Below, one piece after another: positions 3,662 to 34,457 of a stretch of 64,000 nt of DNA. Below the pieces are notes generated by a model. It was not told the DNA's origin. It saw only the letters and a list, made by a program, of their open reading frames with translations, and did no database searches. Positions within the stretch are counted from its first letter, which is position 1; every line of letters starts with the position of its first letter. The DNA is from Promethearchaeota archaeon (GTDB lineage: Archaea > Asgardarchaeota > Thorarchaeia > Thorarchaeales > Thorarchaeaceae): contig JBHLPF010000003.1 in the NCBI GenBank assembly GCA_048939765.1, positions 32,001 to 96,000 of the forward strand. Direction: 5' to 3'. A program made the translations under genes and the position numbers.

Positions 3662-3671
3662 TCTATTCACC

Positions 3672-7876: not shown

Positions 7877-9094
7877 CTATCGAAGGCCCATTAAATCCAC
7901 GAATAGATCCTCTATATTGAGGACCTTGATTTTCTTGTCCCGCTTCTTTATTGCATCCATGAAATTCAATTTGCAGAACACACAGGAAGATGCTAGAGTT
8001 GTCGCTCCTACTTCCAGCGCCGTGTCTATTCTTTCAGCGGCGACATTGATTGCATTTTCCCCAAATCCAGCCTTGAACCCTCCTCCTGCACCGCAGCATT
8101 TTGAGTTCTCACGATTGCGATCCATCTCCACCAATTCGAGACCAGGAATACTTGCCAATACCTCTCTTGGAGCATCAAAGATGCCAACATGTCGACCCAA
8201 GTGACACGGGTCGTGGTATGTGACCTTCTCGGGATAGCTCCCTTTCCATTTGAGCTCACCTTTCTTCACTTTCAGTGCGAGGAATTGTGTTAGGTGCTGT
8301 GTAGTAAATGGAAGAATACCCTGCTTCTCGCGATAGAATTTTGGCCAATCCAAAGTGACTGTGCGGAAACATCCTGAGCATGAGAAGATGAGGTGTTTGA
8401 CTCCTCTCTTCTTGAACTCCTCAATGTTATGCATGATGATGTCTTCCACATGAAGTCTTCCGACGTACTCCTTTGTACCATCTTCATGCTCATCATATAC
8501 GGGCTTATCGAGCTGGCCGGTTCTGATGAGGGGGCTGCAACAGCAGTATTCGTCAGGACCCAAGAGCTGCGGTTTGATGCCGAAGTAGTTGAGCATTCGA
8601 AGAGTGGAGTCTCCTATCTCCTGCCTCTTGAAAGATGCTGTACAACCCACAAAATAGCCCCACTCTGAATCATCAGATATCTCTGTATCATCTTGAATCC
8701 AGTCCGCTCTAGTAGCGTTGTCTGCTGCATACGGATTCTTCACTTTGTGTACAAAGTCTCCCATCAAATGAAGACGTCCATATGGTCCCTTGCCCATCTC
8801 AACAAGCTTCTTTCTGACATCTTCTATAATATCCACATAGGGTAACTTGATAGGACATCTCTCAACACATTGTTCACACGTGCTACAGGCGTAGACGGTT
8901 CTGACGAATTCATCATCAATTGGCAGGTTCTGTTCCACATAGGAACGCAGAAGCCTCAGCCGGCCTCCAGCAAACATGGCCTCAGTACGGAACTCCTCGT
9001 AACTAGTGCATGTCCACCGACAAGTGGAGCAGTTAGCGCATAGCACAATCTTGTCTGGATCGAAGTCTAGTTCTGGACCGAATAGTTTTGGCAT
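7877..9094 (-). CDS. Fe-S oxidoreductase, 2x[4Fe-4S] plus two CCG domains (GlcF/HdrD-like), module A
   Basis: CANCSTCRWTC, CSTCEQCVERCP, GC..CC..CSGC, HDPCHLGR..CCG..CVFC. Confidence 0.9.
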   Translation of the reverse strand: MPKLFGPELDFDPDKIVLCANCSTCRWTCTSYEEFRTEAMFAGGRLRLLRSYVEQNLPIDDEFVRTVYACSTCEQCVERCPIKLPYVDIIEDVRKKLVEMGKGPYGRLHLMGDFVHKVKNPYAADNATRADWIQDDTEISDDSEWGYFVGCTASFKRQEIGDSTLRMLNYFGIKPQLLGPDEYCCCSPLIRTGQLDKPVYDEHEDGTKEYVGRLHVEDIIMHNIEEFKKRGVKHLIFSCSGCFRTVTLDWPKFYREKQGILPFTTQHLTQFLALKVKKGELKWKGSYPEKVTYHDPCHLGRHVGIFDAPREVLASIPGLELVEMDRNRENSKCCGAGGGFKAGFGENAINVAAERIDTALEVGATTLASSCVFCKLNFMDAIKKRDKKIKVLNIEDLFVDLMGLR

Positions 9095-10570
9095 CTAGCG
9101 TACCTCCTCTTGTGGAATCTCTAGGATATTCTTGGCTCGTCTGAAAATACTCAGCACTCTTCTAAAGTTGCCATTCATGGTGAACATGAGATTCATTCTT
9201 CTATACGTCATGTTGGAGTGGGTCAGCTTGTCAGGATTCATAATCCCTTTTGGATCCCAGCGGTTTCGAATTTCTTGAAAGCGATTATAGTCATCAGGCT
9301 GGAACTTCTTGAGATAGACCGTGTTCTGGAGACCAAGAGTGTAGAGCTGCCCGTCATGTTTGTAACCAAGTTTCACTAATCGGTGGAGCATTGTCTTACC
9401 AGCCATGAAATGCATCCAGTGCCTGTGGTCCGACGGTGCGAATAGACAGAGTCTTGCCCTTTTATCGTCACCCAGGACCAGATAGAAGCAGGAGTTAATC
9501 CGATACTTCTTTGCTATATTGTACATTCTTTCTGTTATTGGTTTGATATTCTCCACGGGTATCCAAAGATTCTGCATTGAAAGGGTTGGTACTTCCAGCT
9601 TTAGCTTCATTTCTACAATGAACCTGTCCTCCCAGCTCCGAAGGAAGTACTCCTCTCCTAGGTCCATCGCACCAGCTGTTTTGAAGATGCCACGGGCAGC
9701 CTTGACAGAATCCTCGACATCCAAGGGCTTTCCATCATAGGCGACCAGAAGAAAGTACCTTCCCTCAATAAGAGCTGGCAGTCCTCCAGCTACGCGCCAC
9801 TCATACTCTCTGTCAGTCAGTCTTAGATAGACTGGCTTATGCTTCAGTTGGCAGATCCTCTTTATTGCTTCAATTGTCTTCTCCAGATCGGCAAATGTAA
9901 ACATGACCCCGTCAAATGCTTCTGGCACTCGACGAATTTTCAGCTTTAATGATATCACAACGCCAGCAATTCCTGATGTGCCATAGAATACTTTCATATC
10001 GTCGCCAGTGATCGTTTCTATATGGCCTTCAGGTCGCACTACAGTCATCTCGACTACATTGTCCAACATATTTCCGTGCTTTGGAGTGCCTATTCCTGCT
10101 TTTCCCCCAATTGCGAGCCAGCCCGCAATTACAGATGCCACAGCACTCTGCGGCGCCACTCTCAGGGTGAATCCTTGCTTGCGGAGCTGGTTGTCAAGGA
10201 CTTCCCAAACGGCTCCAGCTTGGACGTGTACCCACATTTCATTTTCATTTATTTCAAGAATCTTGTCGAGGAGTTTTACATCAACCATGATTCCTCCTCT
10301 GGTTGGGCTTGCCGATCCATAATAGCAGGTGCCTCCTCCCCTTGGAATGACTGGTATCTTCTTTTTATTCGCCAATTCGAAAACTTGAGCGACCTGTTCT
10401 GCGCTTGTAGGACGTGCAACGTAGTCAGCTAGCCACTTCTTCTTCCATCGATAATGGTAGTAAGGAATCCCGGTCGTGTCACCACTAGCTGATAGCCTGT
10501 CTACCATATTGCCAGTTATCCACTCTACATCTTCCACTTTCTTCAAATCAATTGATTCCGTTTCGGTCAT
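9095..10570 (-). CDS. FAD-binding oxidoreductase, GlcD/VAO family, module A
   Basis: PRGGGT, GGIMVD, IAGWLAIGG, GTSGIAGVV, DPKGIMNPDK; start ATG 10570. Confidence 0.88.
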   Translation of the reverse strand: MTETESIDLKKVEDVEWITGNMVDRLSASGDTTGIPYYHYRWKKKWLADYVARPTSAEQVAQVFELANKKKIPVIPRGGGTCYYGSASPTRGGIMVDVKLLDKILEINENEMWVHVQAGAVWEVLDNQLRKQGFTLRVAPQSAVASVIAGWLAIGGKAGIGTPKHGNMLDNVVEMTVVRPEGHIETITGDDMKVFYGTSGIAGVVISLKLKIRRVPEAFDGVMFTFADLEKTIEAIKRICQLKHKPVYLRLTDREYEWRVAGGLPALIEGRYFLLVAYDGKPLDVEDSVKAARGIFKTAGAMDLGEEYFLRSWEDRFIVEMKLKLEVPTLSMQNLWIPVENIKPITERMYNIAKKYRINSCFYLVLGDDKRARLCLFAPSDHRHWMHFMAGKTMLHRLVKLGYKHDGQLYTLGLQNTVYLKKFQPDDYNRFQEIRNRWDPKGIMNPDKLTHSNMTYRRMNLMFTMNGNFRRVLSIFRRAKNILEIPQEEVR

Positions 10571-10584
10571 TACGTTCCAACCTC

Positions 10585-10998
10585 CTACATTAAGAACTGG
10601 ATGTATCCCATCACAAAAACAATAGTCCAGCATGTCAGAGCAGTTAATCCTGGCCATTTCACTCTGATTCCACTTATTCCTGTTAGAAACGCGAGTACTC
10701 CAAACAAATAGCCCACCGTTCCCAGAAGAATATGGACAAAATGGAAGATGTCCAATGCTGGATTATTGAGCAGTAAGCCAATCCTCGCATCAGGTAGAAT
10801 CACAACGATGTTGATAGTAGTCAATACGAGCGATAGTCCAGCACAGACGCCGTGTGTGAATGTGTATTTCTCCTTTGAGATTTGATATAGAAGCGTACCA
10901 ATGCCCAGCAAGATAATTGCTGGTAGTCCCAATAAGATTGTCAAGTGAAAGCTTGTCCCAGCCTGTAGCGGCTCAAACCATATTTGTTGACCGACCAT
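10585..10998 (-). CDS. 4-TM membrane protein with His in helices (cytochrome b-like candidate)
   Basis: FTHG and FHFVH in TM helices; aligns by eye with the C-terminal domain of 22288..23484; start ATG 10998. Confidence 0.6.
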   Translation of the reverse strand: MVGQQIWFEPLQAGTSFHLTILLGLPAIILLGIGTLLYQISKEKYTFTHGVCAGLSLVLTTINIVVILPDARIGLLLNNPALDIFHFVHILLGTVGYLFGVLAFLTGISGIRVKWPGLTALTCWTIVFVMGYIQFLM

Positions 10999-11035
10999 TT
11001 TACCACCCTTGCAGATTTTGGGCGGACGATATGGA

Positions 11036-12772
11036 CTAGTGCCAAATTCGTCTACCCAATCGTAGGAAAGGACCACCAATTGCCAGCATGAACGAGATAG
11101 GAATCATGTTAGCTACCTCGACCACAACTTCACCTATTACTAGTCCAAGTCCAAATGCGAGCAGCGCACTCGCCAAATCGGTCACTCCCAGCCACGGAAC
11201 GTAGGCATTCACGATATCAGGGACAATCCAGGTGACAAGCCATATGACGATGGGCACTGCCACAGCCACTGCCAGCATAATCAGAAGGTTGAATCGAAGT
11301 GATAGCTTCAGTGGACCGGAAAAGACCTTGTGAGGGTTCATGTACCCCTTTGGATCTGTCTGTTTCTTTATCTTCGCCATCTTCGCGTAGGTTTCCTTCC
11401 CGAAGTATGAACGAGAATGTGAGACATTCCACATGCCAATAGAATATGCCCTCCCATCATATTTGACACCAATGTCAATGACATCAAGAGAACGATACCA
11501 GCCCATCAGGAACGGTATTGTCCTGCGTTCATCATCCAAAAACCAAGTTAGAACCGCGACTTCTCCCCTATCGGACACTGCTCCTTCAGCTGCCCACTTC
11601 TCACGCTTAAAGTGGTCATCCATATGTGCCAAGAACTCATTCAATCGCTCAACAGGTACATAGACTTCGGAAGGTGCCAGACTTGGTCCCAATCGCTTTA
11701 TCCTCATTGGGTAGAATCGCTCATCCCACTCGTGATGCGCGATCTCTTCTGACTCCACTGTACCATTGTGACGTCTGACAACATGTTTGAGCTTCTCCAG
11801 TTCTCCAGCAATATCATCTTCAGTGCCTTCAAACGTGCAGAGAATTACCCATTCACCTGTTGTGTCGGGTGCTTGGCCAACTTCGACAAGCATACGGTGA
11901 AATGAGTCTGTGATGAAGTGCAAGTAGAACGGTCGTGTTGCCTTCAACAAGTCTGCCAAGGCTCCCTGCATCAAATTTCGGCTTCGGAAGGATGCGACAA
12001 CAGGGTGGATATTCCTTAGAGGAATTATCTTCAGAACGACCTTTGTGATAATGCCTAGAGCTCCATTACTGTCGATTAATAGCTCTTTCACATCATCATC
12101 TTGGGTTACATCGGCTTCTTGAGATCCCCAGACGTAACTATCATCACCTGGGAAATATTGGTAGGTCTTCCCTTTTGTTGTCACGATGTCATCTGGCGGG
12201 TCACTTGTTCTAAATATCCTGCCGTCTGGAAGAACAACTTCCATGTCAACAACCTGTTCTCTGATTCCTCCGTACTTGGTGCTGCCAATTCCAGAACCCC
12301 CGGCCGCAACCCAGCCTCCTACTGTGCTAGACGGTGCACTGGATGGATATGCCCCAACTGTAAGATCCTCGTCCTCCAGGATTTCAAGCAAGCGTCCCCA
12401 GATTATGCCTGAGCCAACTTCAACTGTCATGTTCTCGTGATTAATGTCGTGGACTTCGTTCATCCTAGTGGTTTCTATAACAAGTCCGCCTCTAGTTGGA
12501 AGAGCTCCCCCATATCCACTTGTTCCATGACCCCTGGGAACGACGGGTATCTTCTGTTCTATGCAATACTTCAGTAGATTTGATACGACTTTCGCGTTTA
12601 CCGGCTGAGCCACAGCTTCTGCTTCCGTGATGAGAATATCATTGACCAATCCAGGAAGCGCTGCAATATCATGAGAGTATAGTTTCCTCATGAATCCCTC
12701 AGCTGAGAAATAGTCTTCACCTGTGATGTCCGCAAGTTCCTGAACCTGTTTCGCTGTTAACACGCCTATCAC
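11036..12772 (-). CDS. FAD-binding oxidoreductase, GlcD/VAO family, with C-terminal membrane anchor, module B
   Basis: PRGHGTSGYGG, YPSSAPSSTVGGW, DPKGYMNPHK, then 2 TM helices. Confidence 0.88.
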   Translation of the reverse strand: MIGVLTAKQVQELADITGEDYFSAEGFMRKLYSHDIAALPGLVNDILITEAEAVAQPVNAKVVSNLLKYCIEQKIPVVPRGHGTSGYGGALPTRGGLVIETTRMNEVHDINHENMTVEVGSGIIWGRLLEILEDEDLTVGAYPSSAPSSTVGGWVAAGGSGIGSTKYGGIREQVVDMEVVLPDGRIFRTSDPPDDIVTTKGKTYQYFPGDDSYVWGSQEADVTQDDDVKELLIDSNGALGIITKVVLKIIPLRNIHPVVASFRSRNLMQGALADLLKATRPFYLHFITDSFHRMLVEVGQAPDTTGEWVILCTFEGTEDDIAGELEKLKHVVRRHNGTVESEEIAHHEWDERFYPMRIKRLGPSLAPSEVYVPVERLNEFLAHMDDHFKREKWAAEGAVSDRGEVAVLTWFLDDERRTIPFLMGWYRSLDVIDIGVKYDGRAYSIGMWNVSHSRSYFGKETYAKMAKIKKQTDPKGYMNPHKVFSGPLKLSLRFNLLIMLAVAVAVPIVIWLVTWIVPDIVNAYVPWLGVTDLASALLAFGLGLVIGEVVVEVANMIPISFMLAIGGPFLRLGRRIWH

Positions 12773-12774
12773 TC

Positions 12775-13962
12775 CTAAAGACCTAGTGCCTCCACCACAA
12801 TCTGGGATAAGTCCTTGAATTTGATCTCAGACTTCTTTTCCTCGATGCCATCTGTGAAAGACATTGTACAGGATGGACATTCACTTGCTAGAATCTCTGC
12901 TCCTGTCTTCTCAGCCTCTTCTATTCTACGCCCAGAGATTCGTACTGACATCATCGGATTGGTACCCTTTAGTAGACCTCCCCCTCCGCAACATCTAGCT
13001 TTGTTTCGGTTATGTTTCATCTCTCGAAGATCCAGCCCTGGTATCGCACTCAACACCTCACGAGCAGGATCATAGATCTCTTGATGTCGTCCAAGCTCAC
13101 AGGGGTCGTGCCAAGCGACAACATGATTGTAGGGCTTGGTGAACTTTATTCTGCCTTCATTCATCATCTTTTTTATAAACTGCGAAAACGACAGAAATTC
13201 CATGCCTTCTACAGATTCTTGCCCGAGAAGGTGCGGATACTCCTCAGAGAACGCGCGATGGCATCCAGGGCAGTTGAAGACTACTGTCTTGACACCCAAA
13301 TCCTTGAGCGTCGAAAGGTTATGTTTGGCTAGGCCCTTCGCCTTCTCAAACTCACCTGCAACAAAATAGGGATTTCCACAGCAAGTCTCCTCTTCTCCGA
13401 GAACTGTGAAATCGATTCCTAAATGATCGAAAACCTTGATAGTATTCTCTCCCATGAACGCTAGTGTTCCCTTGAATGAAATATTGCAGCCCGCAAAATA
13501 GGCGACCTCTGCATGCGCCATCTCTTTGTCTTCAACCAAGTCGTCGACCATGTCCGCCCAAAGCATTCTGTCGTATTGGTCCATCTCCATGATATTTTGG
13601 GTGTTCCTCAGAGACTCGTCAAGATATTTCACAATCTCTGGCCATTCTTCGAGATTCCCAACTTCGTTTCGAATCAACTGCCAGAAACGAAGCAGAGGTA
13701 TGTTTGTCTGGCAAATCTCCTGACAAGCGCCACACAGAGTACACTTGAATATCCTGTCAGCAAAGTCTGGAGGAATCTTCTGATTCTTTTTGACTAAATC
13801 CCTCAGTTGATACAGCTTTCCTCTTGGCGATTGTGAGTCCCACAGAGTATCTAGATAGGCAGGACATACAAACGTACAGAAACCGCACCTTGCACAGACT
13901 GTCGGTTCAATATCCAGGTTCTCTGCCTTAAGTTTTTCAAAGAGTTTGCTTCCCATCAACAT
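12775..13962 (-). CDS. Fe-S oxidoreductase, 2x[4Fe-4S] plus CCG domains, module B
   Basis: CARCGFCTFVCP, CTLCGACQEIC, CCG x2, HDPCELGR, CPSC. Confidence 0.9.
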   Translation of the reverse strand: MLMGSKLFEKLKAENLDIEPTVCARCGFCTFVCPAYLDTLWDSQSPRGKLYQLRDLVKKNQKIPPDFADRIFKCTLCGACQEICQTNIPLLRFWQLIRNEVGNLEEWPEIVKYLDESLRNTQNIMEMDQYDRMLWADMVDDLVEDKEMAHAEVAYFAGCNISFKGTLAFMGENTIKVFDHLGIDFTVLGEEETCCGNPYFVAGEFEKAKGLAKHNLSTLKDLGVKTVVFNCPGCHRAFSEEYPHLLGQESVEGMEFLSFSQFIKKMMNEGRIKFTKPYNHVVAWHDPCELGRHQEIYDPAREVLSAIPGLDLREMKHNRNKARCCGGGGLLKGTNPMMSVRISGRRIEEAEKTGAEILASECPSCTMSFTDGIEEKKSEIKFKDLSQIVVEALGL

Positions 13963-13968
13963 CCCTCT

Positions 13969-14466
13969 TCAGGGCCAAGGCAATCCTATCCAATCAAGTA
14001 TTGGCTCCAGAATCGATTCGTGATAAACCGCGATCCCTCCCAATGCAGCGATTATGATTATCAATACTCCAGCAACAACTAAGCCTATCCCATAAGTGAG
14101 AAAACCTGAGGTCTTGTCCCACACTCTATCGCCAAGTCTGGTTCGAAGAATAACTAGGAAGATATAGATCTCTGTTGCCACAATTGACCAGAGAATCTTG
14201 AATCTCATATAGGGGTCAATTATCAGTGCAACCATTGGCCAATCCAAGAAGCCTGTCGCCATCCCTACGAAGAGGCCGATGAGTGTTATTATGCTTCCCC
14301 AATAGATGAAGACATCAAACTCATGAAAGATCCTTGCCATTCTTGTCCCGGGGGTTCTTATGCCATCTCGAAACACTAGCCTGAATACGATATTGAGCAA
14401 TGCAATAACCGCTACAGCTGCTCCTATGCCGGTATGAAAGTGTACAAAGACTGGATGTAGTGCCAT
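13969..14466 (-). CDS. DUF2231-like 4-TM membrane protein
   Basis: N-terminal LHPVFVHF and C-terminal LGG..VY pattern. Confidence 0.55.
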   Translation of the reverse strand: MALHPVFVHFHTGIGAAVAVIALLNIVFRLVFRDGIRTPGTRMARIFHEFDVFIYWGSIITLIGLFVGMATGFLDWPMVALIIDPYMRFKILWSIVATEIYIFLVILRTRLGDRVWDKTSGFLTYGIGLVVAGVLIIIIAALGGIAVYHESILEPILDWIGLPWP

Positions 14467-14478
14467 GATAATCACCCT

Positions 14479-15120
14479 CTAGGTTCGGGCCCTCCTCAAA
14501 ACAAACAAGCCTAAGATGGCAAGCACCACTGCCGAAGCTGGAGTTATGGTGTACATCATCAGCTCCCATATGGCAATAAGCTCCTCCTGAGATGGTGTCG
14601 TTGGAGGGGGTGTTGTTGTAGTCGGCGGTGTGCTTGTTGGGGGACTTGTTGTGGCAGTGTTCTCTGCCACATCGACATTTATGTCAACACTCCGGCCTAC
14701 TCCTCCAGTTTCAGCAGACCAAATTCTGATTACGAAGGATCCTACCGTCCGAGGTGTAAATGTGATTGACGCTTGGATCTCTCCTACGTTTCCATTTGCA
14801 TCCTCAGCATCTCCATCCCAGACTACATCGTCAGAGATTGTGAACTCCCCATTGTCAGCAACTCCGTCTTTAATGCTGATTGCGATATGTTCTGTACTAT
14901 CGCTTGCGTCTATGATGAGCAGGAATGATACTCCCCTAGTTGCTTCAATCGTCCCAGTCGCATTCGTTGAAAGTGTAGTACCCACGGTTGTATGGCATCC
15001 CGCTTGTAGAGCGCAATTAGGATTGTAATCCGGTATAGCGAAAGAACTGCTCGCCAAGATAAACACTGAGATGACCAGGGTCGCTATAACCAAGGTCATT
15101 CTGCGATGCTGCTTCTTCAT
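14479..15120 (-). CDS. Exported membrane-anchored protein with CX5CH motif, Ig-like domain and Pro/Thr linker (putative atypical c-type cytochrome)
   Basis: Signal peptide, CALQAGCH, TSPPTSTPPTTTTPPPTTP, C-terminal TM plus RRAR. Confidence 0.6.
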   Translation of the reverse strand: MKKQHRRMTLVIATLVISVFILASSSFAIPDYNPNCALQAGCHTTVGTTLSTNATGTIEATRGVSFLLIIDASDSTEHIAISIKDGVADNGEFTISDDVVWDGDAEDANGNVGEIQASITFTPRTVGSFVIRIWSAETGGVGRSVDINVDVAENTATTSPPTSTPPTTTTPPPTTPSQEELIAIWELMMYTITPASAVVLAILGLFVLRRART

Positions 15121-15343
15121 CTGGTTGTCTCCATTGGTTCTGAACAAGGCTCTATATCGAGTTCGTTCGTCGTTGGCCAAGGCCATGGTTTCAATCCGGA
15201 ACCACGCAACGCCATTTTAAGCATATCGGAAGCTTACATTGTAGGTTTCGAAAGCCGCCTGTTACGTCCTGAGACTTAACTCCTATCGAGAGGTACAATA
15301 CGTAAGTAATTCGAGTATCATCCACATTTTGGCTCTACAAGAG

Positions 15344-17050: not shown

Positions 17051-17052
17051 TG

Positions 17053-18249: not shown

Positions 18250-18351
18250 TCCAAAGGAATGTCCATTATCTCGCCTTAAGACTGTTAGGCTAGGTTCAAA
18301 AATGAAAGGACACCGGAGCACACATACAGGCACTCCGGATTGTCTATAAAA

Positions 18352-19683: not shown

Positions 19684-19690
19684 TTGGTTC

Positions 19691-20815: not shown

Positions 20816-20827
20816 TGTCTTCTCACC

Positions 20828-22282
20828 TCATCTCCCCACATATCTTGATAGGCGCCTTATTCCAGCGGCCATTAGGAACAACACATTCATCCTGAAGTAT
20901 GACGTCATGCATGAGGTCACACGGTCTGGATTCATTATATTGCTCCGATCCCACTTTTCTTTTGCTGCCTTCATTAATTCTAATCTCTCTGGATATGCAC
21001 GCTTCATATAGATTGAATTCTGAAGGCCAATCGTGTAAGGCCCACCGCCAAGCGAAATAGCCTTCTTCACCATTTTATGCAATATGCCTTTGCTGCTTAT
21101 GAACTTGAGATACTGGTCGGGATTCAGCATTGCCATCAATTCAGCTCTAACCTTTCCTTGACTTCCGAGCATTGCGAACCAGATTGCAGGCACCTTGTGT
21201 GATTTCTTGTAGGACTCATACCTGTTGAGTAGGTCATAGAGCTTGTCTACCTCAAGTGAAACCTCCTGAAACATCAAGGTGTCACAGTGCTCCTTGGGGT
21301 TGAACTCGCTGTCATAACGTAGACTCCAATCATGAGCTGCATATTCAACACCAAGTTCCATTCCTCCATTGTCTGCAATTGTCCTCTTGAGTTCATCTAT
21401 TGGGACACTTTCCGGCTGATTGGGATAGACCGCTGTCAGGACATAATTGCCCTTCTCTAGTGGATTGCTGTAGCTCTGGAAGTCCTTGTCTGCAATCTTG
21501 AGATGGATCGGTTTCTGATCAATAGCAGCAATTTGCCGCATTGCATTGCACACATGCTCCAGGTGGTCAAATCCGTAGCTGAACGGAATGAAATCATCGG
21601 GCTTATCATGGATTCTCATTTTCACCTCTGTGATGACTCCAAGTATGCCATAAGACCCAAAGAATAGTCCTATCTCATCGCCACTGATTGTGACCAATTC
21701 GCCATCAGCATTCACGACCGTCAATTCAAGGATATTCTCGATCAGAGCTCCGTAGTAGGGAGTGCCAATGCCTGCTGTACCCCCGCATCCGATCCATCCA
21801 GCGATTACAGCTGATTTAGCGCTAGTTGGATAAATGCCAATGGTCTTCCCTTGTTTTGCGAGCTCAACATCGAGTCTGTCGAAGGGAACCCCTGGTTCAA
21901 GTCTGACATAGCCTTCATCTGTATTGATTTCAAGGATGGCATCCATCCGCTTGATGTCAAGAGATATCCCGCCGCGTGTTGGGCTCGATGACCCCAGGCA
22001 ACTTGATGCACCGCCTCTTGGGATGACGGGAATACCGTGAGCAGCCGCAGTTGTAACAACTTCCCTCACCTCATCCACATTCTCGACTCGTACAACATAG
22101 TCGACCAGATACTTCCCTTTCCAGCGGTAGTGGAATTGTGGGAGGGCTGCAGGATCGCCGCTATACACTATCCTCTCCAACAGCATGTTCGAAACTCGAT
22201 CCGGACTTACGGCTGCTGCAAGGTCTCGCATGACTTGGTCATCATATTTTGGAGTCTGGGTTTCCACTTGTTCTTCAGTCAT
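20828..22282 (-). CDS. FAD-binding oxidoreductase, GlcD/VAO family, module D (close paralog of module A)
   Basis: FHYRWKGKYLVDY, PRGGASS, IAGWIGCGG, GSYGILGVI, IMNPDR; start ATG 22282 or 22288. Confidence 0.88.
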   Translation of the reverse strand: MTEEQVETQTPKYDDQVMRDLAAAVSPDRVSNMLLERIVYSGDPAALPQFHYRWKGKYLVDYVVRVENVDEVREVVTTAAAHGIPVIPRGGASSCLGSSSPTRGGISLDIKRMDAILEINTDEGYVRLEPGVPFDRLDVELAKQGKTIGIYPTSAKSAVIAGWIGCGGTAGIGTPYYGALIENILELTVVNADGELVTISGDEIGLFFGSYGILGVITEVKMRIHDKPDDFIPFSYGFDHLEHVCNAMRQIAAIDQKPIHLKIADKDFQSYSNPLEKGNYVLTAVYPNQPESVPIDELKRTIADNGGMELGVEYAAHDWSLRYDSEFNPKEHCDTLMFQEVSLEVDKLYDLLNRYESYKKSHKVPAIWFAMLGSQGKVRAELMAMLNPDQYLKFISSKGILHKMVKKAISLGGGPYTIGLQNSIYMKRAYPERLELMKAAKEKWDRSNIMNPDRVTSCMTSYFRMNVLFLMAAGIRRLSRYVGR

Positions 22283-22287
22283 AATCA

Positions 22288-23484
22288 TCACATCAAGAAT
22301 CCAACCGCATTGAGATAGAATCCTGTCAGCCCGAGTACTGTCCACATCAATACTGTAGGTAGGCCGAGATTGCATGTTTTCCACCCAGCGATATGGGTGA
22401 TGAGCGCTAGTGTTCCGAGTATCATGCTTAGTATTCCAACCCAGATATGCCAAGAGTGAATGAATAGCATCAGCTCAGCTGGGTTGATAAGATAGGATGG
22501 GTTCAAAGCAGTCCAAGCTCCAGGGTCTTCCTGAAATAGCCAAAGCACGTTGATTAATGTGAGGAAGTAGGCTATTGTTAGCATATACCCGTGAAATCTG
22601 GTGAATCTCTCTTCATCATAGTATTCGAGTGCTGTGCCAAGATACGCTAGTATCAATGCTGGAGCACCCAAATAGAACCCATAGTGCAACTTCGGTAGCG
22701 GAATGGCCTGCACTGTGTATTGTAAGGGCGGATCAGTGAATACTTCTATTCCACCTACATCCCTCGCGACTATCCGAAACTCTACTGTAGTGCCAGCCGG
22801 ATATCTTGGAATAGTTGCCTGATAGTATCCACCAACTTGTGTCATTGTAATGTTGGTCCACTCAGTAGTTGTGTTTGCCCTATGTTGTAGCACTGCTGAA
22901 ACAATACCTGCTTCCGAGCTTACATTCGCCGACACAAGTACACTCTCATTATCGAACGGAGACGTTGGCTCAATAGTGAAGTCTGCTATCGATGGTCCTT
23001 CTCCCACATGAATCACATTCACAATGATTGTAGTTCCTACCGCATAGCCACCGTTACCTGCAGCCCATATCTCAAGGGTATATGAGCCCGCTATCGCAGG
23101 CGCAGTCAATGTATAGTTGACTTCCATCTCCAGAGGGTCTGAATCAAGGTCACCTGCTAAGTTATCACGAACCAATCCATCACTGGGAATATTGAAGAGG
23201 GCATTGCTCTCCAAATTCAAGGGGAACTTGATGACTAGCGTAGTTGGCCCTGATGTTGCTGAAGCAGTGACAATAAACGAGAATTCCGCTCCTTCTTCAA
23301 CATCTACCGAAGTGTCCGTGCTTACTGTCATTCCAGTCGCAGTAGTATGACATCCCGTATTATCGCAGGCTCCCTGTTGAGTCACATAGGCAACAGTAGC
23401 TTGAGACGCTATGACGAGGGCTATGGCAGCAGCTAACACAACAATAATGGCATATCTTGATTTCCGCTTCACATCTGTCACCAT
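22288..23484 (-). CDS. Exported CX4CH domain, two Ig-like domains and a 4-TM His-containing membrane domain (putative cytochrome c/b fusion)
   Basis: Signal peptide, CDNTGCH, RFHG and IHSWH in TM region. Confidence 0.6.
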   Translation of the reverse strand: MVTDVKRKSRYAIIVVLAAAIALVIASQATVAYVTQQGACDNTGCHTTATGMTVSTDTSVDVEEGAEFSFIVTASATSGPTTLVIKFPLNLESNALFNIPSDGLVRDNLAGDLDSDPLEMEVNYTLTAPAIAGSYTLEIWAAGNGGYAVGTTIIVNVIHVGEGPSIADFTIEPTSPFDNESVLVSANVSSEAGIVSAVLQHRANTTTEWTNITMTQVGGYYQATIPRYPAGTTVEFRIVARDVGGIEVFTDPPLQYTVQAIPLPKLHYGFYLGAPALILAYLGTALEYYDEERFTRFHGYMLTIAYFLTLINVLWLFQEDPGAWTALNPSYLINPAELMLFIHSWHIWVGILSMILGTLALITHIAGWKTCNLGLPTVLMWTVLGLTGFYLNAVGFLM

Positions 23485-23628
23485 AGGTTGTGCACTGATG
23501 CACAGCGGCAAGCTACCCAGTAAAAAACCTTACCGGATGTTATGTATCATCAGATTTGAGTTTCATGTTCGTTTTCGAAAGTTTTGCTGTGGAATCACTT
23601 TGAGTTACCATCTGCAACCGAAATCTAC

Positions 23629-24117
23629 TCAATAATCGTGGTTCTTCCATCTGTAGAAGTCTGTACCTCTCCAATAGGACAATATCCTTGGAGTAATCCG
23701 AATTGCAATTCTGTTTCCCAAGGGATATCCGGCGCCGAGGAAATCTAGATACTTGGAGAGGAAGTTGATCGTAATCTCTTCATCAACAAGCTCCATCTCC
23801 ACCATCATGGCGCGACCCTTAATCATGACTCCGCGATTGGCTGCAGGTAGTACTGCGTTTCGCTCATCCACGGTTACACACACTTTTGTGTTCTTTCTGA
23901 TGTTTGCAATCTTGTGGCTACCTCTTGTGGTAATCATATAGATCTGCTTTGTAGGATCATGCCAGATATAGAACATCGCAGTTAGGTGCGGCAAGCATCC
24001 TGCTTCTGATGTTCCAAGGTATGAGAAAAAGCCTGACTTGAGGATACGCAAAGCTTCCTCTGGAATCTCCTTCGCGATTCTTATTGGAGCACCATGTGTC
24101 TTGGCTAGGAACATCAT
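23629..24117 (-). CDS. Pyridoxamine 5'-phosphate oxidase-like split-barrel flavin/F420/heme-binding protein
   Basis: PHLTAMFY, SHKIANIRKNTKVCVTVD, GVMIKGRA. Confidence 0.8.
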   Translation of the reverse strand: MMFLAKTHGAPIRIAKEIPEEALRILKSGFFSYLGTSEAGCLPHLTAMFYIWHDPTKQIYMITTRGSHKIANIRKNTKVCVTVDERNAVLPAANRGVMIKGRAMMVEMELVDEEITINFLSKYLDFLGAGYPLGNRIAIRITPRILSYWRGTDFYRWKNHDY

Positions 24118-25371
24118 TCACACCCTCAGTATCTGCGGCTTAGCCTCTCTCCAGTATGTTATCTTCTCAGGCTCGACCCTCACCATGACTCTGGATACGA
24201 ATGGTTTGTTTTGCCATGCAAGGGGGAGGTCCTTTTCTTGTGTGTCATAGTACTTCATGTATCGTGGATATTTCCTACCAAAGAGAGACCGTACTCTGAG
24301 CATCCATAGTCCATAAAGATACAGTCTGAATAGTCCTAGTGGAGTTACCTCCCCAAGAATCATCGCCTTTCCGCGAAGCATAACAGCTCGATTTTTCATT
24401 ACATTCTTACTGTCTCTCAGATCTACAAGGATAGCGATGTTGGGGTTCTTCTTGATCTTCCGATATTTCGCAGAGGCGAGCGATATTCCGAAATACAAGT
24501 ACTTTCCATCATAGACAAAGATCACTGGAGTCACATGACTCTGGTTCTTTTCACAAAGAGCAACATATGCAAATCGTTCATTGTAGAGGATGCTCTCCAC
24601 ATCGGGCGGGAACCATGGAACTCGTTCCATAGCCAACAGACTTGCTCCCGATAGTGACAGGACAGCGGCGAAGAAGGCACCCAGTCCATACAGCAGCATT
24701 GGTTCAATGCTTGCCAGAGGCAGCAACAGGACGGCTGATGCAGCCCAATACAGATTGACTGAGTCCAAATACTTTAGGGTCCGAACTTCCGAATATGCAG
24801 TGTATTCAAGTCCCCTTCTCCGTCTTGCGGCGCGGCTGAGTGATATAGACCTCCTAGCCGCAAAGAGTGTGGTAATCAACGATAATCCAATTCGATAGGA
24901 AACGTCCCAAATAAGAACTGCAACTAGTGCCATTAGTATTGGGTTGCCAAATCCTGTTCCTAGGTTCTCAGCAAGAAGTGTCGGATTCAGGAGGATGAAT
25001 CCCCAAACACCAGCGAAAAGCGTGATTCCCATTGCAAGCTCGTACCGCCTATCCAGAAGAAGTCGGTTTTTGTATGACTCAAGAACTCTTCTTTCCTCAT
25101 CGTTAGTTGGATTTCTTAAGCGTCTCAGCCACGGGATGACATAAAGACATCCAGCGGACCATACAACAGTATATAGAATTGCCAATGTACCGTAGATGGC
25201 TGAGGTCAAAGGCATTTCGAAATACAGGAATCCAGCAATCCCTATCGCTTCGACCAATAGCAATTGGGCCAAAACGTCGTAAACTGGCGGGAGCCAGCTA
25301 AATGGAGGAACTCTGTCAACTATCTCCTCATAAATCCATTTTCTCTCGGCATGCTGGCTCGTCCCTTGCAT
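24118..25371 (-). CDS. Multi-TM membrane domain fused to a PNPOx-like split-barrel domain
   Basis: About 6 TM N-terminal region; C-terminal HVTPV..SAKYRKIKKNPNIAILVD..AVMLRGKA. Confidence 0.75.
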   Translation of the reverse strand: MQGTSQHAERKWIYEEIVDRVPPFSWLPPVYDVLAQLLLVEAIGIAGFLYFEMPLTSAIYGTLAILYTVVWSAGCLYVIPWLRRLRNPTNDEERRVLESYKNRLLLDRRYELAMGITLFAGVWGFILLNPTLLAENLGTGFGNPILMALVAVLIWDVSYRIGLSLITTLFAARRSISLSRAARRRRGLEYTAYSEVRTLKYLDSVNLYWAASAVLLLPLASIEPMLLYGLGAFFAAVLSLSGASLLAMERVPWFPPDVESILYNERFAYVALCEKNQSHVTPVIFVYDGKYLYFGISLASAKYRKIKKNPNIAILVDLRDSKNVMKNRAVMLRGKAMILGEVTPLGLFRLYLYGLWMLRVRSLFGRKYPRYMKYYDTQEKDLPLAWQNKPFVSRVMVRVEPEKITYWREAKPQILRV

Positions 25372-25474
25372 TCATAGACAGGCTTCACACCAACTTATTT
25401 GCGTATCGAAACCACCGATTGGCTAGGGCTTTGATATTGTATCTTTAAGGGGGCACATCAGAATGGAATTCAGC

Positions 25475-26716
25475 CTACTCATAGATCTCCTCTAACCCAT
25501 CCCACTCCAAGCCTAATGCCTCAGCCATTAGAACTGCAAGGTCCTTAACTACCTTACTCGATCCTGCTTGAGGCAGTTGATCATGCATGAAGTCAACACA
25601 TGAAGGGCAAGATGCAGCAACTACTGAAGCACTTGTCTGTTCAATATCGTCCACTTTCAACTTGCTGATCCGGTTGGCAAACTCGGCGTCAATAGCTCGT
25701 AGCACACCGCCCGACCCGCAGCAGAAACAGTTGCTCTTGTTATGCGGCAGCTCCTCGAAAGTCACCCCAGGCAGGTACTCCAAGACCTTTCTAGGCTGTT
25801 CATAGAAACCTGAGTTCCTTCCCGCGTCGCAGCCGTCATGAAATGTCACAGTAATGTCTAGAGGATTGGTGAATTCCAACTTGTTGGCATCAATAAGCTC
25901 CTCAAAATACTCCGGTCCGTAGATGATTTCGAATGGCGGGTCAATGCCAAGGAACTCGTGATATTCATGGGCCCACATCTTATAGCAGCCCGGGCAATTT
26001 GTCATAACTCGTTCCACCCCGAGTTCCTTGTATTTCTCAATATTATGCTCAGCAAATTGACGAGCGGTCTCGAAGTCGCCTGTCATGATCATAGGCGCTC
26101 CACAACAGACTTCATCTTCACCAAGAAATGTGTACGACTCGCCAGCTTTGTCCATGATCAGAGTGGTGGCAATTGTTGCCTGAATGGAGACTCCACGGAA
26201 TGAGGAGGCACACCCGAAGAAGAATGCAGTCTTTGCCTCTTGGCCCATTGTATCTAAAAGGGCGTCTTCATCTGGATGCCAATACGACCATCCCTCGACT
26301 CTATCCATCTGTGACTGTCCCTGAATGTTCTGGCTGTCAAGTAGGGTCTTCTTTGCCATCTCAAGTTGCTCAGGCCAGAGACCCATCTTCTGGAAGTCTG
26401 ACCTCATCAGTTGGTAAATCTGAACAAAAGGAATGTCCACCTGGCAAATCTCTTCGCATCCTCCACAGAGAGTACATCCGAAAACCGCGTCGCGAAGACC
26501 CTCTAGACCTTCCGACGCCTTCAGGCTTCCCTGGGCCAATGAACGGGCAATGATCATCTTCCCTTTTCCTGAGTAGCTATCTCGGCGCTTCACCTTGTAG
26601 GTCGGACAGGCGCCATGGCCAACTTGGCAGAAGCTACATTGCGCACAAGTATATGGCATATCTTGAAGGTTATGCTTCTTCAGTGATGGGAATTCCATGA
26701 TGTCATTCACAACCAT
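25475..26716 (-). CDS. Fe-S oxidoreductase, 2x[4Fe-4S] plus CCG domains, module E (divergent from the FAD-NuoB fusion)
   Basis: CAQCSFCQVGHGACP, CTLCGGCEEIC, CCG, CPGC, HDGC, CCGSGG, CPSC. Confidence 0.9.
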   Translation of the reverse strand: MVVNDIMEFPSLKKHNLQDMPYTCAQCSFCQVGHGACPTYKVKRRDSYSGKGKMIIARSLAQGSLKASEGLEGLRDAVFGCTLCGGCEEICQVDIPFVQIYQLMRSDFQKMGLWPEQLEMAKKTLLDSQNIQGQSQMDRVEGWSYWHPDEDALLDTMGQEAKTAFFFGCASSFRGVSIQATIATTLIMDKAGESYTFLGEDEVCCGAPMIMTGDFETARQFAEHNIEKYKELGVERVMTNCPGCYKMWAHEYHEFLGIDPPFEIIYGPEYFEELIDANKLEFTNPLDITVTFHDGCDAGRNSGFYEQPRKVLEYLPGVTFEELPHNKSNCFCCGSGGVLRAIDAEFANRISKLKVDDIEQTSASVVAASCPSCVDFMHDQLPQAGSSKVVKDLAVLMAEALGLEWDGLEEIYE

Positions 26717-26935
26717 CGGGACACGTGGCTCGACATGTTTTGCCGAACGAGTTATGCCCTGCAACAGCCCTTAATATCTGTGCTCGTTGCACAATGGCAT
26801 AGCTTTCGTCACACTTTAAAACTTGTTAGGTAAGTTGTGTCAAACGCCATTCCCTCCCTCTCTCGCTAGGTTTTTATGGAGCATGATTCCACGACCGTGA
26901 CCTGAGAGCAGCTTCATCTCTTGGAGAGAGTCCAC

Positions 26936-28876
26936 ATGACACTGAAGCCAAAGCTAGTGACGGAACTCGCTGAGGTCTATGAAGACCGAGTGATCACAGA
27001 GAAGCATGAGCTCGTCATCCATGGCATGGATGTTGGTTCTTTGCCCAAACAAGTGGGCTGGTTAATGAACGTCAAGCCTGATGCGATTGTGCAGCCTCAA
27101 ACCCCTGAAGAGATCAGGTTCCTGTACGAGTTTGCAAACAAGTACAAGGTTCCTCTAATACCAAGGGGGGCAGGCACTTCGGGCTATGGTGGTGCAATTC
27201 CTCGAAAGGGAGGCATCATTGTTGACATGCGTGTTATGGACAAGATCGTTGACATCGATGAAGAGAATCTGACTGTCACTGTTGAGCCCGGACTCTCATG
27301 GGCGAATCTGCAATTTGAGCTGAACCGAAAGAACCTAGACCTCCGTTGTTATCCCTCTTCTGGACTCTCTGCAACAATCGGGGGCTGGGTGGCCCAGGGC
27401 GGCGATGGAATTGGGTCTCTCAAGTATGGGAACATCAACAAGAACGTGGTTGCTTTCGAGGTGGTCTTGCCAACTGGAAAGATGATCAAGAGCAAGGACT
27501 GTGACCTGTTCTGTGACACAGAGGGCATTCTTGGAATCATCACTAAGGTGACTCTGAAGATAAAGCCCTTCACTCCTATCAAGGTCATTGTTTCGAGCTT
27601 CCCTGAGAATTATCTGATGGTTCATGCTATAGAGAAGATACTCGAAGATGGTCCTCTTCCATTCACGATAAAGTTCGAAGAAGCAAAGTACACAGACCTG
27701 AAGAAGAAGATCTGGGACAGTGAGGAGAAGTTCCCATTCCCGGTTCATCACTGCACGATTATGGTTGCATATGACGGAGATGAGGAGGAGATTGCAGAGG
27801 GCTTCAGAGTTGTAGAAGAAGTCACAAAGATGTACAAGGGAACTGTTTATGATGAGCATGTGTCTACCCACGAATGGAGTGACCGCTTCTACCCAATGAG
27901 AGTCAAGAAAGCTGGTCCTACCCTCGTTGTTGGCCAAGCATTTGCACCGCTTGAGAACCTAACCGCAATACTTGATGACTGGCAATTTGAACAGGGATCC
28001 GCTAAAGCTGGTATTGATGGCTACGTAAACTCTTTGAATGCTGTCACCATGATGGGCTATTTCCTCGAAGATGAACGGCGCAGATTCTTCATGTTATCCT
28101 GGGCTCAGAGCTTTGTTGTGTTCAAGATTGCACAGCGGCATGGCGGTCATGCTCACTCGACAGGAATCTGGTTCGCCAACCTGGCCGGTCAATACTTTGG
28201 TGCACAGCGACTGGCAAAGATACGTGCAGCCAAGCTTAAGTACGACAAGAAGGAGATATCAAATCCTGGGAAGGTGTTCGCCTATTGGCTACCACTTATT
28301 CTCAAGTTTGGTAAGTATTTCCTCTGGATATTCTATGACCTATTCAGGAATGGGTTTGGCAGGATTGCTCCAATACTTCTGAAGTGGCTCCAGAACCTGC
28401 CGCCACTCAAGTGGGTGCTGCGATGGGGCCGAGCACATAGTCCATGGCCAGTGCAATACGGATTAGGATGTTGCATGGTCGATGGTGCCGCTGGAATCGC
28501 GTCGAGGTGGGACTTTGAACGATTCGGGATGCTCCCCCTCTTTGGCCCGCGGCAGTGTGATGTGCTATGGATATCTGGGTCTCTTACCAAGAAGATGGCT
28601 CCGCGACTGCGAAGAGTCTACGAGATGATGCCAGATCCCAAGTTCGTTATCGCCTTCGGACAGTGCGCGGCCAGTGGCGGCGTCTTTTGGGACGGATACT
28701 CGCTACAGGTTCCGCCTGAGTCTGTAGTACCTGTCGACGTCTATTTGCCCGGGTGTCCTCCGAAGCCTTCAGACTTCGTCAGGGCTCATCTGATACTCCA
28801 GAACAAGATTCGTGCAGGCACGACACACTGGCAAATGAAGTATGAAAACCAGGACGCAATGGGGATGATCCAATGA
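26936..28876 (+). CDS. nuoB: Fusion of a GlcD/VAO-family FAD oxidoreductase and complex I subunit NuoB
   Basis: N-terminal PRGAGTSGYGG, YPSS..ATIGGW, NPGK; C-terminal WP..GLGCC, ERFG, PRQCD..SG, LRRVYEMMPDPK.VIAFGQCAASGG, PVDVYLPGCPP. Confidence 0.93.
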   Translation: MTLKPKLVTELAEVYEDRVITEKHELVIHGMDVGSLPKQVGWLMNVKPDAIVQPQTPEEIRFLYEFANKYKVPLIPRGAGTSGYGGAIPRKGGIIVDMRVMDKIVDIDEENLTVTVEPGLSWANLQFELNRKNLDLRCYPSSGLSATIGGWVAQGGDGIGSLKYGNINKNVVAFEVVLPTGKMIKSKDCDLFCDTEGILGIITKVTLKIKPFTPIKVIVSSFPENYLMVHAIEKILEDGPLPFTIKFEEAKYTDLKKKIWDSEEKFPFPVHHCTIMVAYDGDEEEIAEGFRVVEEVTKMYKGTVYDEHVSTHEWSDRFYPMRVKKAGPTLVVGQAFAPLENLTAILDDWQFEQGSAKAGIDGYVNSLNAVTMMGYFLEDERRRFFMLSWAQSFVVFKIAQRHGGHAHSTGIWFANLAGQYFGAQRLAKIRAAKLKYDKKEISNPGKVFAYWLPLILKFGKYFLWIFYDLFRNGFGRIAPILLKWLQNLPPLKWVLRWGRAHSPWPVQYGLGCCMVDGAAGIASRWDFERFGMLPLFGPRQCDVLWISGSLTKKMAPRLRRVYEMMPDPKFVIAFGQCAASGGVFWDGYSLQVPPESVVPVDVYLPGCPPKPSDFVRAHLILQNKIRAGTTHWQMKYENQDAMGMIQ

Positions 28877-29418: not shown

Positions 29419-29513
29419 AGCAGACTGGAACCTGCAATTGTTATCCCCTGAGTCCGCCTAGATTCTTCTAGTCCTGACTAAAATGAGGAGGCTATGGATG
29501 AGAGCGCGGACTC

Positions 29514-29873
29514 TCATTCACGAAGCCAAGCAAACGCAGCAAACGCCAGGAGCAAACCGAAGGCAACCCATGCAAAGAGGAGAATACCTGCTAGGTCAGT
29601 GTACTGGGTGATGTCCAAATATGCGTGCACACCACCAAAGACTCCAGCAGCCATCGTGGCACCTATGCGGCCACTGCGGGTTGATGCGAATGCAATACCA
29701 AGAGTCGCTACTACGAAGAACAGCCCACTCAAGAAGATGAAGTATTGGAAGGTGAGATCAATCGGTGCTACAGTCAAGATGATCCAGAAGTATGCCCCAA
29801 TGAATCCCATTCCGATTAGAAGCGCGAGGTAATAGAAGAATGTACCCTCTTCTTTGTAAGACAATTGTATCAC
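29514..29873 (-). CDS. Hypothetical 4-TM membrane protein
   Basis: Four hydrophobic helices; GGTG upstream; fills the intergenic gap. Confidence 0.65.
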   Translation of the reverse strand: MIQLSYKEEGTFFYYLALLIGMGFIGAYFWIILTVAPIDLTFQYFIFLSGLFFVVATLGIAFASTRSGRIGATMAAGVFGGVHAYLDITQYTDLAGILLFAWVAFGLLLAFAAFAWLRE

Positions 29874-34451: not shown

Positions 34452-34457
34452 AGCAAG

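Follow-up and report, generated by a model that had tools for sequence, protein, structure and literature searches.

Headless complex-I homologues of 11 subunits occur in archaea and bacteria, and the partner that delivers or receives their electrons has been a long-standing question. For several archaeal lineages the answer given, an HdrD/GlcD unit, rested on gene neighbourhood alone. A headless Fpo-like complex acting with HdrD was proposed for Methanomassiliicoccales, and an "Fpo-associated HdrD/GlcD" unit for Methanomethylicia, Bathyarchaeia and Korarchaeia (PMC10667645, PMC6783470). Here we describe a Thorarchaeota locus in which a flavoprotein of the GlcD type is covalently joined to NuoB, a core subunit of the pump. 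The window that was analysed consists of the 64,000 nucleotides at positions 32,001 to 96,000 of contig JBHLPF010000003.1 (assembly GCA_048939765.1). Within about 21 kb of it (7877-28876) stand five pairs of genes, designated A to E, each encoding a flavin adenine dinucleotide (FAD) protein and an iron-sulfur (Fe-S) protein with CCG domains. They occupy the centre of a respiratory island, about 47 kb long, that is conserved in one Thorarchaeota genus. This DNA is present in mangrove, marsh and sediment samples. A search of the literature found no paper describing the fusion, the array, Thorarchaeota complex I or Thorarchaeota cytochromes. Coordinates are positions in the window, and the starts of open reading frames (ORFs) are given where orthologs argue for a shorter start.

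The FAD-E::NuoB fusion and the pump operon

The fusion is encoded on the plus strand at 26936-28876, the start being placed at 26936 because the orthologs are 646 aa long. The FAD domain occupies residues ~1-450 and is followed by an amphipathic tail or linker (~450-495). From there the protein runs without a stop into an Oxidored_q6 domain (PF01058, residues 531-622, E 6e-24). This NuoB part passes the cut-offs of PF01058 (84.6 bits against 27), NF005012 (168.6 against 116) and TIGR01957 (160.8 against 142.7). Its best matches in the PDB are NdhK and Nqo6 (E 1e-40), which places it closest to the true complex I/NDH-1 subunits, and the four Cys ligands of the N2 cluster can be read in GLGCCMVDG, FGQCAASGG and LPGCPPKP. 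In the AlphaFold2 (AF2) model of the fusion the FAD domain is confident, and the NuoB part, where the alignment is shallow, has a predicted local distance difference test score (pLDDT) below 55.

Clustering at 90% identity gives at least 45 clusters with the fusion, which come from several sources and are all Thorarchaeota. Its members are 71-95% identical and 644-667 aa long, mostly 646. Twelve of the 16 genomes of the genus carry it, either whole or as fragments split between contigs, and completeness is 62-77% in the remaining four. The genome has no other close NuoB, and its nuo operon is single. An assembly artefact or an extra paralog is ruled out by this fact and by the number of clusters. 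When other proteins fused to this NuoB clade were sought, in a search that depends on shared words, Thorarchaeota fusions alone were found.

Two small conserved genes without a family match separate the fusion from nuoA. The first (28873-29418, plus strand) has a start that overlaps the stop of the fusion and encodes a protein with three transmembrane (TM) helices and an acidic, PE-rich tail; the second is a 112-aa ORF (29494-29832, plus strand). Both may be lineage-specific subunits of the pump. They are followed on the same strand by nuoA, J, K, C, D, H and I together with four genes for antiporter-like subunits (30207-41757). Neither nuoE, nuoF, nuoG nor FpoF was found in the operon (28873-41757). 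The E pair is as conserved as NuoD, NuoH and NuoI (82-95% identity; 82-91% for CCG-E orthologs), compared with 55-91% for the other pairs, and by this measure the fusion appears to evolve at the rate of the pump core.

In a genome of the sister genus (G017) the E pair is unfused, and the order there is MutS, geranylgeranyl-reductase-like gene (GGR), polyprenyl synthase, UbiA, CCG-E, FAD-E (499 aa) and ACS. No nuo genes were found near this pair and no close NuoD in that genome. The comparison was made between C3:106000-125999 (locus L004) of G017 and positions 4419-44044 of the window. The genome described here shares this frame and has three blocks that G017 lacks. Behind MutS stand a gene for a six-CxxCH cytochrome, a 726-aa gene and the ccm genes, behind UbiA stands the A-D array, and behind FAD-E stands the nuo operon. 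The comparison is unrooted and does not tell gain from loss of these blocks. Another genome, G019, of the same order as the one described here, has a free nuoB between nuoK and nuoC.

At the level of sequence, the covalent joining of FAD-E to NuoB is strong genomic evidence for association of an HdrD/GlcD-type unit with the pump. Half of such a unit and the pump's only NuoB are contained in one protein, in dozens of independent assemblies, and the hypothesis has thereby become testable.

The five FAD/CCG pairs

A first-pass annotation, made from the letters alone, had recognised five FAD/CCG pairs in about 21 kb, and the Pfam domains of all ten proteins bear this out. All five FAD proteins match PF01565 (FAD_binding_4; E 7e-33 to 2.5e-38) and PF02913 (FAD-oxidase_C), and all five partner proteins match Fer4_8 and two CCG domains (E 3e-26 to 6e-37). 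The sequence motifs listed in that annotation can also be read in the translations: HYRWK and YT.GLQN are common to FAD-A and FAD-D, and W..R.YP.R.K..GP.L is present in FAD-B (WDERFYPMRIKRLGPSL), FAD-C and FAD-E. The NP.K motif occurs in all five FAD proteins.

With the exception of FAD-E, the genes of the pairs lie on the minus strand. They are CCG-A (7877-9094), FAD-A (9095-10570), FAD-B (11036-12772), CCG-B (12775-13962), FAD-C (15344-17050), CCG-C (17053-18333), CCG-D (19691-20815), FAD-D (20828-22453) and CCG-E (25475-26764). The order of transcription is FAD then CCG for A and D and CCG then FAD for B and C, and the two genes of E are divergent. The start of FAD-A is placed at 10570 because the orthologs are 491-497 aa long; the longest ORF reaches 10657. 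The probable start of FAD-D, at 22288, overlaps the stop of the upstream gene.

The genome of 3.37 Mb holds at least 12 adjacent FAD/CCG pairs, five of them within these 21 kb. A comparison with related genomes, as suggested in the annotation, showed the complete array in unchanged gene order in two other species of the genus, the array genes being 55-95% identical across species. From these two facts, the clustering of the five pairs is not a matter of chance. The other seven pairs have no TM tails and no adjacent genes for His-rich 4-TM proteins or exported CxnCH proteins, so that links to the membrane are limited to these five of the at least 12 genomic pairs.

The further pairs, at least seven, are on contigs C97, C16, C55, C91, C2, C57 and C69 (and C26), and none has a hydrophobic tail. 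The C16 flavoprotein, flanked by two CCG genes, is alone among them in keeping HQHGVG; the two FAD-type genes next to it are presumably GlpA/B-like, judging from their N-terminal sequences only. The C26 pair looks to be of the TfrA/TfrB type, and on C69 the order is FAD-CCG-FAD.

Attachment to the membrane

The C-terminal parts of the flavoproteins differ. Hydropathy shows hydrophobic helices after NP.K in FAD-B (residues 496-514 and 528-546) and FAD-C (485-503 and 520-558), as had been claimed, and none in FAD-A, FAD-D or FAD-E, which have amphipathic segments instead. The short amphipathic tails that had been described for FAD-A and FAD-D are among these, and FAD-A has no TM helix.

In the wider clade to which B, C and E belong, the tail that follows NPxK ends in a conserved helix, P-[FL]-[LM]-[RK]-[IL]-G-[RK]. 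The corresponding tail in proteins that combine FAD and CCG halves in a single chain is the linker to the CCG half. In FAD-B and FAD-C about 60 residues, comprising the two hydrophobic helices, are inserted between NPxK and this conserved helix. The resulting hairpins span residues 496-546 of FAD-B, ahead of the tail ...PFLRLGRRIWH, and residues 485-558 of FAD-C, ahead of the tail ...PLLRVLDRILNR. The flanking charges obey the positive-inside rule for an in-out-in arrangement, and the tail is predicted to return to the cytoplasm. FAD-E keeps the whole tail, about 45 residues after NP.K, with NuoB appended to it (...PPLKWVL followed by RWGRAHSPWPVQYGLGCC). Unfused E orthologs (498-499 aa, 55% identity) end in ...PPLKW(I/L)RN, and their tail is homologous to the linker of the fusion.

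The annotation had placed NuoB in the same slot as the helices of B and C and had called the modules interchangeable. In detail this was wrong. The hairpin is an insertion before the tail helix and NuoB is an addition after it, and therefore the modules have not been swapped in a single slot. Each module appears to be held at the membrane in its own way, E through NuoB, B and C through the hairpin, and A and D through their tails and neighbours.

Putative partners of modules A to D and the respiratory context

The A-D part of the array reads as two rearranged sister units. Unit 1 has the order x407, FAD-D, CCG-D, amine-oxidase-like gene, CCG-C, FAD-C, and unit 2 the order x235, m168, CCG-B, FAD-B, m164, FAD-A, CCG-A. 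An A/D-type pair and a hairpin-bearing B/C-type pair are present in each unit, together with one exported CxnCH protein and one or two 4-TM proteins. The largest of the partner proteins is x407 (22288-23511, minus strand), which has a signal or anchor helix, a C-x4-CH motif, two Ig/FN3-like domains and a His-rich 4-TM domain. Its counterparts in unit 2, all on the minus strand, are x235 (14479-15186) and m164 (10585-11079, start probably 10998). By translation and hydropathy x235 is exported, carries a C-x5-CH motif and is anchored by a TM helix at its C-terminus; m164 is a His-rich membrane protein with four hydrophobic helices. The N-terminal domain of x407 is 33% identical to x235 and its C-terminal part 32% identical to m164, and x407 is, to judge from these alignments, a fused version of the two. 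The spacing between the cysteines varies from 2 to 5 residues among the homologs of x407, one of which has a canonical CxxCH, and their 4-TM domain has four conserved His. The other 4-TM protein, m168 (13969-14475, minus strand; identified by hydropathy), begins with HPVFVHFH; it had no match in a Pfam search and has no detectable similarity to m164 or to the membrane domain of x407.

Genes of the cytochrome c maturation (ccm) system I, ccmF, E, C, B and A, are situated 3-8 kb from the array, upstream of the prenyl genes. The window opens with the C-terminal part of ccmF (3-641, plus strand; Pfam CcmF_C), the rest of which is upstream. An FMN reductase gene lies amid the ccm genes (784-1416, plus strand) and is followed on the minus strand by ccmE (1413-1802; CcmE), ccmC (2197-2868; Cytochrom_C_asm), ccmB (2939-3688; CcmB) and ccmA (3672-4553; ABC_tran). 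The prenyl genes are the GGR gene (4419-5618, plus strand; GGR_cat), the polyprenyl synthase gene (5625-6656, minus strand; polyprenyl_synt) and the UbiA prenyltransferase gene (6802-7866, plus strand; UbiA). In G017 this trio adjoins the unfused E pair. A 489-aa protein with six CxxCH motifs is encoded about 4 kb before base 1 of the window (contig C50:26727-28196; L090:12727-14196). It has weak matches to Cytochrom_C552 (NrfA-type) and c554, is followed by the 726-aa gene, which belongs to no family, and by ccmF, and is a candidate for a terminal reductase outside the cytoplasm that is matured by the Ccm system.

Thorarchaeota are usually read as fermenters. The ccm genes, the multihaem cytochrome, the genes for a prenyl carrier and the four further tethered modules point to respiration across the membrane in at least one genus of the group, which bears on models of Asgard metabolism and of the archaeal partner in the origin of eukaryotes.

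Proposed path of the electrons

What the sequences show directly, namely the domains and cofactor ligands, a conserved fusion, the segments in the membrane, the synteny and the history of the paralogs, is best explained by five two-subunit modules, each consisting of a cytoplasmic flavoprotein of the GlcD/LDHD fold and an HdrD/GlcF-type Fe-S protein. Each flavoprotein would most likely oxidise a small organic substrate that bears a carboxylate. The electrons would then pass from FAD to the Fe-S clusters and on to a membrane carrier or a partner membrane complex. The partner of module E would be the complex-I-like pump lacking NuoEFG, on or beside which the module would act, and the partners of modules A to D would be putative cytochrome b/c modules. 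From there electrons would move on to acceptors outside the cytoplasm, an example being the six-haem cytochrome encoded nearby. The substrate class, the direction of the electrons, the contacts between the proteins and the binding of haem are what we infer in this explanation. That the modules might serve different membrane acceptors (quinone pool, cytochrome modules, proton pump) was already the reading of the annotation.

Stated in general terms, as membrane-docked dehydrogenase modules that feed a respiratory chain, the explanation has in our judgement an even chance of being right. A bolder reading is tentative and on balance doubtful. In it, FAD-E and CCG-E would be the working redox head of the pump, an organic-acid dehydrogenase (or the reverse) wired through NuoB with no step involving NADH, F420 or free ferredoxin, and modules A to D would lead into cytochrome b/c conduits. 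If this is true, a substrate-multiplexed anaerobic respiratory chain operates in an Asgard lineage thought to be fermentative.

Several observations weigh against the general explanation. The N-terminus of NuoB is probably near the membrane, far from the NuoI clusters at which headless complexes take electrons, and the tether therefore shows no electron path. One NuoF-like and two FrhB-like genes are present on other contigs, unlinked to the operon, and their products could dock on the pump instead. The deposited 2.58-Mb chromosome of G004, a member of the same genus, has no match to NuoD or to the fusion; the remnant of the array in it looks decayed, and the pump is absent. The AF2 model of x407 (mean pLDDT 73) has two Ig/FN3-like domains and no cytochrome fold, and a Foldseek search with it found Ig/FN3 folds only; it matched neither the 4-TM part nor any cytochrome fold. 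The exported CxnCH proteins are thus no more than putative haem proteins. Of the quinone pathway, MqnA/D, the sole marker searched for and missed, was not found in the 88.5%-complete genome, in which UbiD is present.

The part of the array that remains in G004 is at C1:2210001-2230000 (locus L009) and consists of FAD-A, CCG-A, m164 and a match to FAD-B that lacks the first 171 residues.

Active site of the flavoproteins

The active site counts on the same side. The best structural match of the FAD domain is mouse LDHD (Foldseek TM-score 0.85). The Mn ligands of this enzyme are His398, His405 and Glu442; the carboxylate is held by Arg347, and His443 serves as the base in catalysis. Replacing any one of these residues with alanine gives a dead enzyme (PMC10589216). 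FAD-B was aligned with 8jdb (LDHD) and 7qh2 (LctD) using HMMER, and the 13 paralogs of the genome were aligned with one another. The equivalent of Arg347 is kept in all five proteins (WEDR, WDER, WDER, WSLR and WSDR in A to E). The three Mn ligands are absent from all five; the Glu442 column has a His in FAD-E, and there is otherwise no His or Glu at the metal-ligand columns of A to E. The position of His443 is occupied by Tyr in A to D (YTLG, YSIG, YAVA, YTIG) and by His in E alone (HSTG). With the Mn ligands gone and His443 mostly replaced by Tyr, ordinary 2-hydroxyacid chemistry is not assured. Nor does any FAD or CCG protein pass an NCBIfam equivalog, the FAD proteins scoring 123-152 bits against the GlcD equivalog TIGR00387 (cut-off 568) and 46-76 bits against that of YdiJ (cut-off 1350).

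The same Tyr motif, YS.G, is found together with W.ERFYPMR.KR.GPS in fused single-chain FAD-CCG proteins of Thermincola, Chloroflexota and Methanoperedens, which are 895-1030 aa long among those read. By their sequences B, C and E belong to a GlcD-like clade that is widespread and does not have the canonical metal site, and we know of no characterised member of this clade, fused forms included. Orthologs of FAD-A were found in Thorarchaeota only. The existence of natural single-chain fusions argues that the FAD and CCG subunits work together.

A gene for a PocR-sensor/helix-turn-helix regulator precedes the single-chain genes in four Chloroflexota loci (L069, L084, L086 and L089). It is the sole recurrent neighbour among 17 loci from outside Thorarchaeota, and it hints at a catabolic use induced by a small molecule in those Chloroflexota.

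The loss of the canonical 2-hydroxyacid catalytic residues would also suit a role in the chemistry of cofactors or lipids. The substrate of the E pair, and perhaps of others, would then be a prenylated compound (a carrier, a lipid or a haem precursor), and the modules would make or modify the carrier used by the pump and the cytochromes. Such a role is further suggested by the position of the E pair beside UbiA, polyprenyl synthase and the GGR-like gene in both genera, by the genes of the amine-oxidase/phytoene-desaturase family and of the PNPOx type inside the array, and by the presence of the lipid enzyme AGPS among the closest folds. We consider it improbable, however. The carboxylate-binding Arg is kept, biosynthesis has no evident need of four Fe-S clusters or of a covalently attached NuoB, and the bacterial fused FAD-CCG genes have no prenyl genes nearby and, in the four Chloroflexota loci, have the PocR-type sensor. 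Five paralogs, with seven more elsewhere, fit a diversity of substrates better than a single pathway.

Public annotation hides both the fusion and the atypical active site. The fusion is labelled "NADH-quinone oxidoreductase subunit NuoB", "subunit K" or "hypothetical protein" in public records, and its paralogs "glycolate oxidase".

Iron-sulfur partners and the direction of electron flow

Each CCG protein has two ferredoxin-type motifs CxxCxxCxxxC (C19/22/25/29 and C70/73/76/80) and two CCG patterns C..CC..CxxC (C151, C184-185, C239, C242 and C297, C333-334, C371, C374), and PF02754 matches twice in each. All 18 cluster cysteines are invariant across the five proteins, and hence each can carry two cubane and two HdrB-type clusters. 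The best partial matches in NCBIfam are TfrB, LdhH, GlpC, TmcB, HmcF and DsrK. The CCG proteins are below the cut-off for all of these and for GlcF and HdrB, including CCG-B, although its alignment with TmcB (E 3e-32) is full-length.

That the CCG proteins keep the whole cysteine pattern of HdrB/HdrD is in keeping with electron flow in the opposite direction. Reduced ferredoxin would feed the pump at NuoI, and the electrons would leave through CCG-E and FAD-E to a soluble acceptor, for instance a 2-oxoacid, a disulfide or a compound resembling fumarate. The remaining modules would drain the carrier as reductases. The best NCBIfam matches, to the thiol:fumarate reductase TfrB, HdrB-related proteins, TmcB and HmcF, lean the same way, and an "Fpo-associated HdrD/GlcD" unit had already been hypothesised (PMC10667645; PMC6783470). 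This direction, the main rival, is unlikely: no reductase equivalog is matched at anything near its cut-off, the characterised members of the flavoprotein fold are oxidising dehydrogenases, and the adjacent ccm genes and multihaem cytochrome suggest that the sink is extracytoplasmic rather than cytoplasmic. Moreover, we know of no CoM/CoB-type (coenzyme M/coenzyme B) disulfide in Thorarchaeota.

Paralog history

The five pairs, which the annotation had taken for a paralog family in two subfamilies, are indeed a family, and its copies are old: identities are 24-36% among the FAD proteins and 25-37% among the CCG proteins. A maximum-likelihood tree of the FAD domains was built from 12 paralogs of the genome, eight fusion proteins that had been split, and the ortholog of G017. 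It groups A with D (support 99/99), B with C (100/98) and E with the E protein of G017 (100/100). B, C, E and the fused forms make up one clade (87/99), in which E is nearer to the fused forms. For the FAD proteins the A/D subfamily thus stands. B, C and E as one exclusive subfamily had to be rejected, since the tree puts E with the widespread fused forms of bacteria and archaea.

In the tree of the CCG proteins, B and C, together with the C57 protein, group with E and its G017 ortholog (95/90). This group joins the fused forms and CCG-D (96/96), to the exclusion of CCG-A. A topology that unites CCG-A with CCG-D is worse by 15 log-likelihood units and is not rejected by the approximately unbiased (AU) test (p 0.165). 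In the mirror-tree comparison of the five pairs, the true pairing gives the best correlation between FAD and CCG distances of all 120 permutations (r 0.63); over the 12 pairs of the genome the correlation is not significant (r 0.34, p 0.11). Co-evolution of the two subunits is therefore upheld for B, C and E and by the five-pair comparison, and is upheld neither by the CCG tree for A and D, which it does not group, nor by the comparison of 12 pairs. Co-duplication of the B, C and E pairs is supported by the two trees.

The weak genome-wide co-phylogeny would be compatible with the absence of any network, the array being a tandem of independent catabolic dehydrogenases. NuoB would be a mere tether or an aid to assembly, and the CxnCH and 4-TM proteins would be unrelated surface proteins. 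The Ig-like model of x407, as in surface proteins, and the matches of its middle domain to giant repeat proteins agree with this, as do the variable PKD/Ig surface genes that separate CCG-E from FAD-E in other species and the persistence of part of the array without the pump in G004. We nevertheless find it very improbable that the modules are unconnected. Across species the array keeps its entire gene order, with identities of 55-95%, membrane links occur in only five of the at least 12 pairs, the fusion is the sole NuoB and seems to evolve at the rate of the pump core, and the ccm genes and a multihaem cytochrome are adjacent.

Other genes in and around the array

The amine-oxidase/phytoene-desaturase-family flavoprotein of unit 1 is 443 aa long (18352-19683, minus strand; PF01593, E 1e-34), and its orthologs in related genomes are in the same position and 77-92% identical. 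Two PNPOx-like proteins that bind flavin or F420, one of 162 aa and one of 417 aa with a membrane domain DUF7530, are encoded at 23629-25371 on the minus strand. These three genes are kept inside the array. In two other species a gene for a PKD/Ig-repeat surface protein (1224 or 770 aa) is situated between CCG-E and FAD-E (L006:4257-7931 and L008:6002-8314); it is absent from the window. A gene for a Ras-family small GTPase (41963-42637) lies directly 3' of the last antiporter-like gene, and the minus strand has a 1831-aa ORF at 47697-53192.

Comparison with known systems

The closest counterpart is the Fpo-like complex with HdrD/GlcD. Both have an 11-subunit complex-I homologue encoded by an operon without NuoEFG or FpoF, and in both a paired HdrD-like CCG protein and GlcD-like flavoprotein are thought to serve the pump. 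The published association is a genomic hypothesis only, whereas here the flavoprotein is covalently attached to NuoB. There are also four more membrane-linked pairs here, with ccm and cytochrome genes adjacent, and there is no Mcr or CoM/CoB context, mcr and CoM/CoB genes not having been searched for. The F420H2-oxidising input FpoF/FqoF is another case of a flavoprotein other than NuoF serving an archaeal pump of the complex-I type. It differs in fold and cofactor logic, and FpoF is a separate subunit that is not fused to FpoB.

The flavoproteins share the two-domain VAO/PCMH fold and the carboxylate-binding Arg with mouse LDHD and with LctD of the Acetobacterium woodii Ldh-EtfAB complex (PDB 8jd*, 7qh2). 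What sets the five proteins apart is a CCG Fe-S protein dedicated to each of them, a conserved helix in the C-terminal tail and the absence of the Mn ligands. GlcDEF likewise combines FAD_binding_4 proteins with a CCG protein, but GlcD keeps the canonical catalytic residues. The single-chain FAD-CCG proteins of Thermincola potens, Methanoperedens and Chloroflexota are in the same clade as B, C and E in both the FAD and the CCG trees. The two halves are separate genes in the window, however, and the flavoprotein bears a hairpin (B, C) or NuoB (E).

Among the complexes of sulfate reducers, Tmc, Hmc and Dsr(MK) resemble the units of the array in combining a cytoplasmic CCG protein with a membrane cytochrome b and an exported cytochrome c, haem being putative in the present case. 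The scores of the CCG proteins against the models of these complexes are far below cut-off, and the membrane and exported partners found here are unrelated in sequence to TmcC/A or DsrM/J. Finally, a free-standing NuoB has ~150-250 aa, whereas the NuoB of this pump is the C-terminal part of a 646-aa fusion with an FAD domain at its N-terminus.

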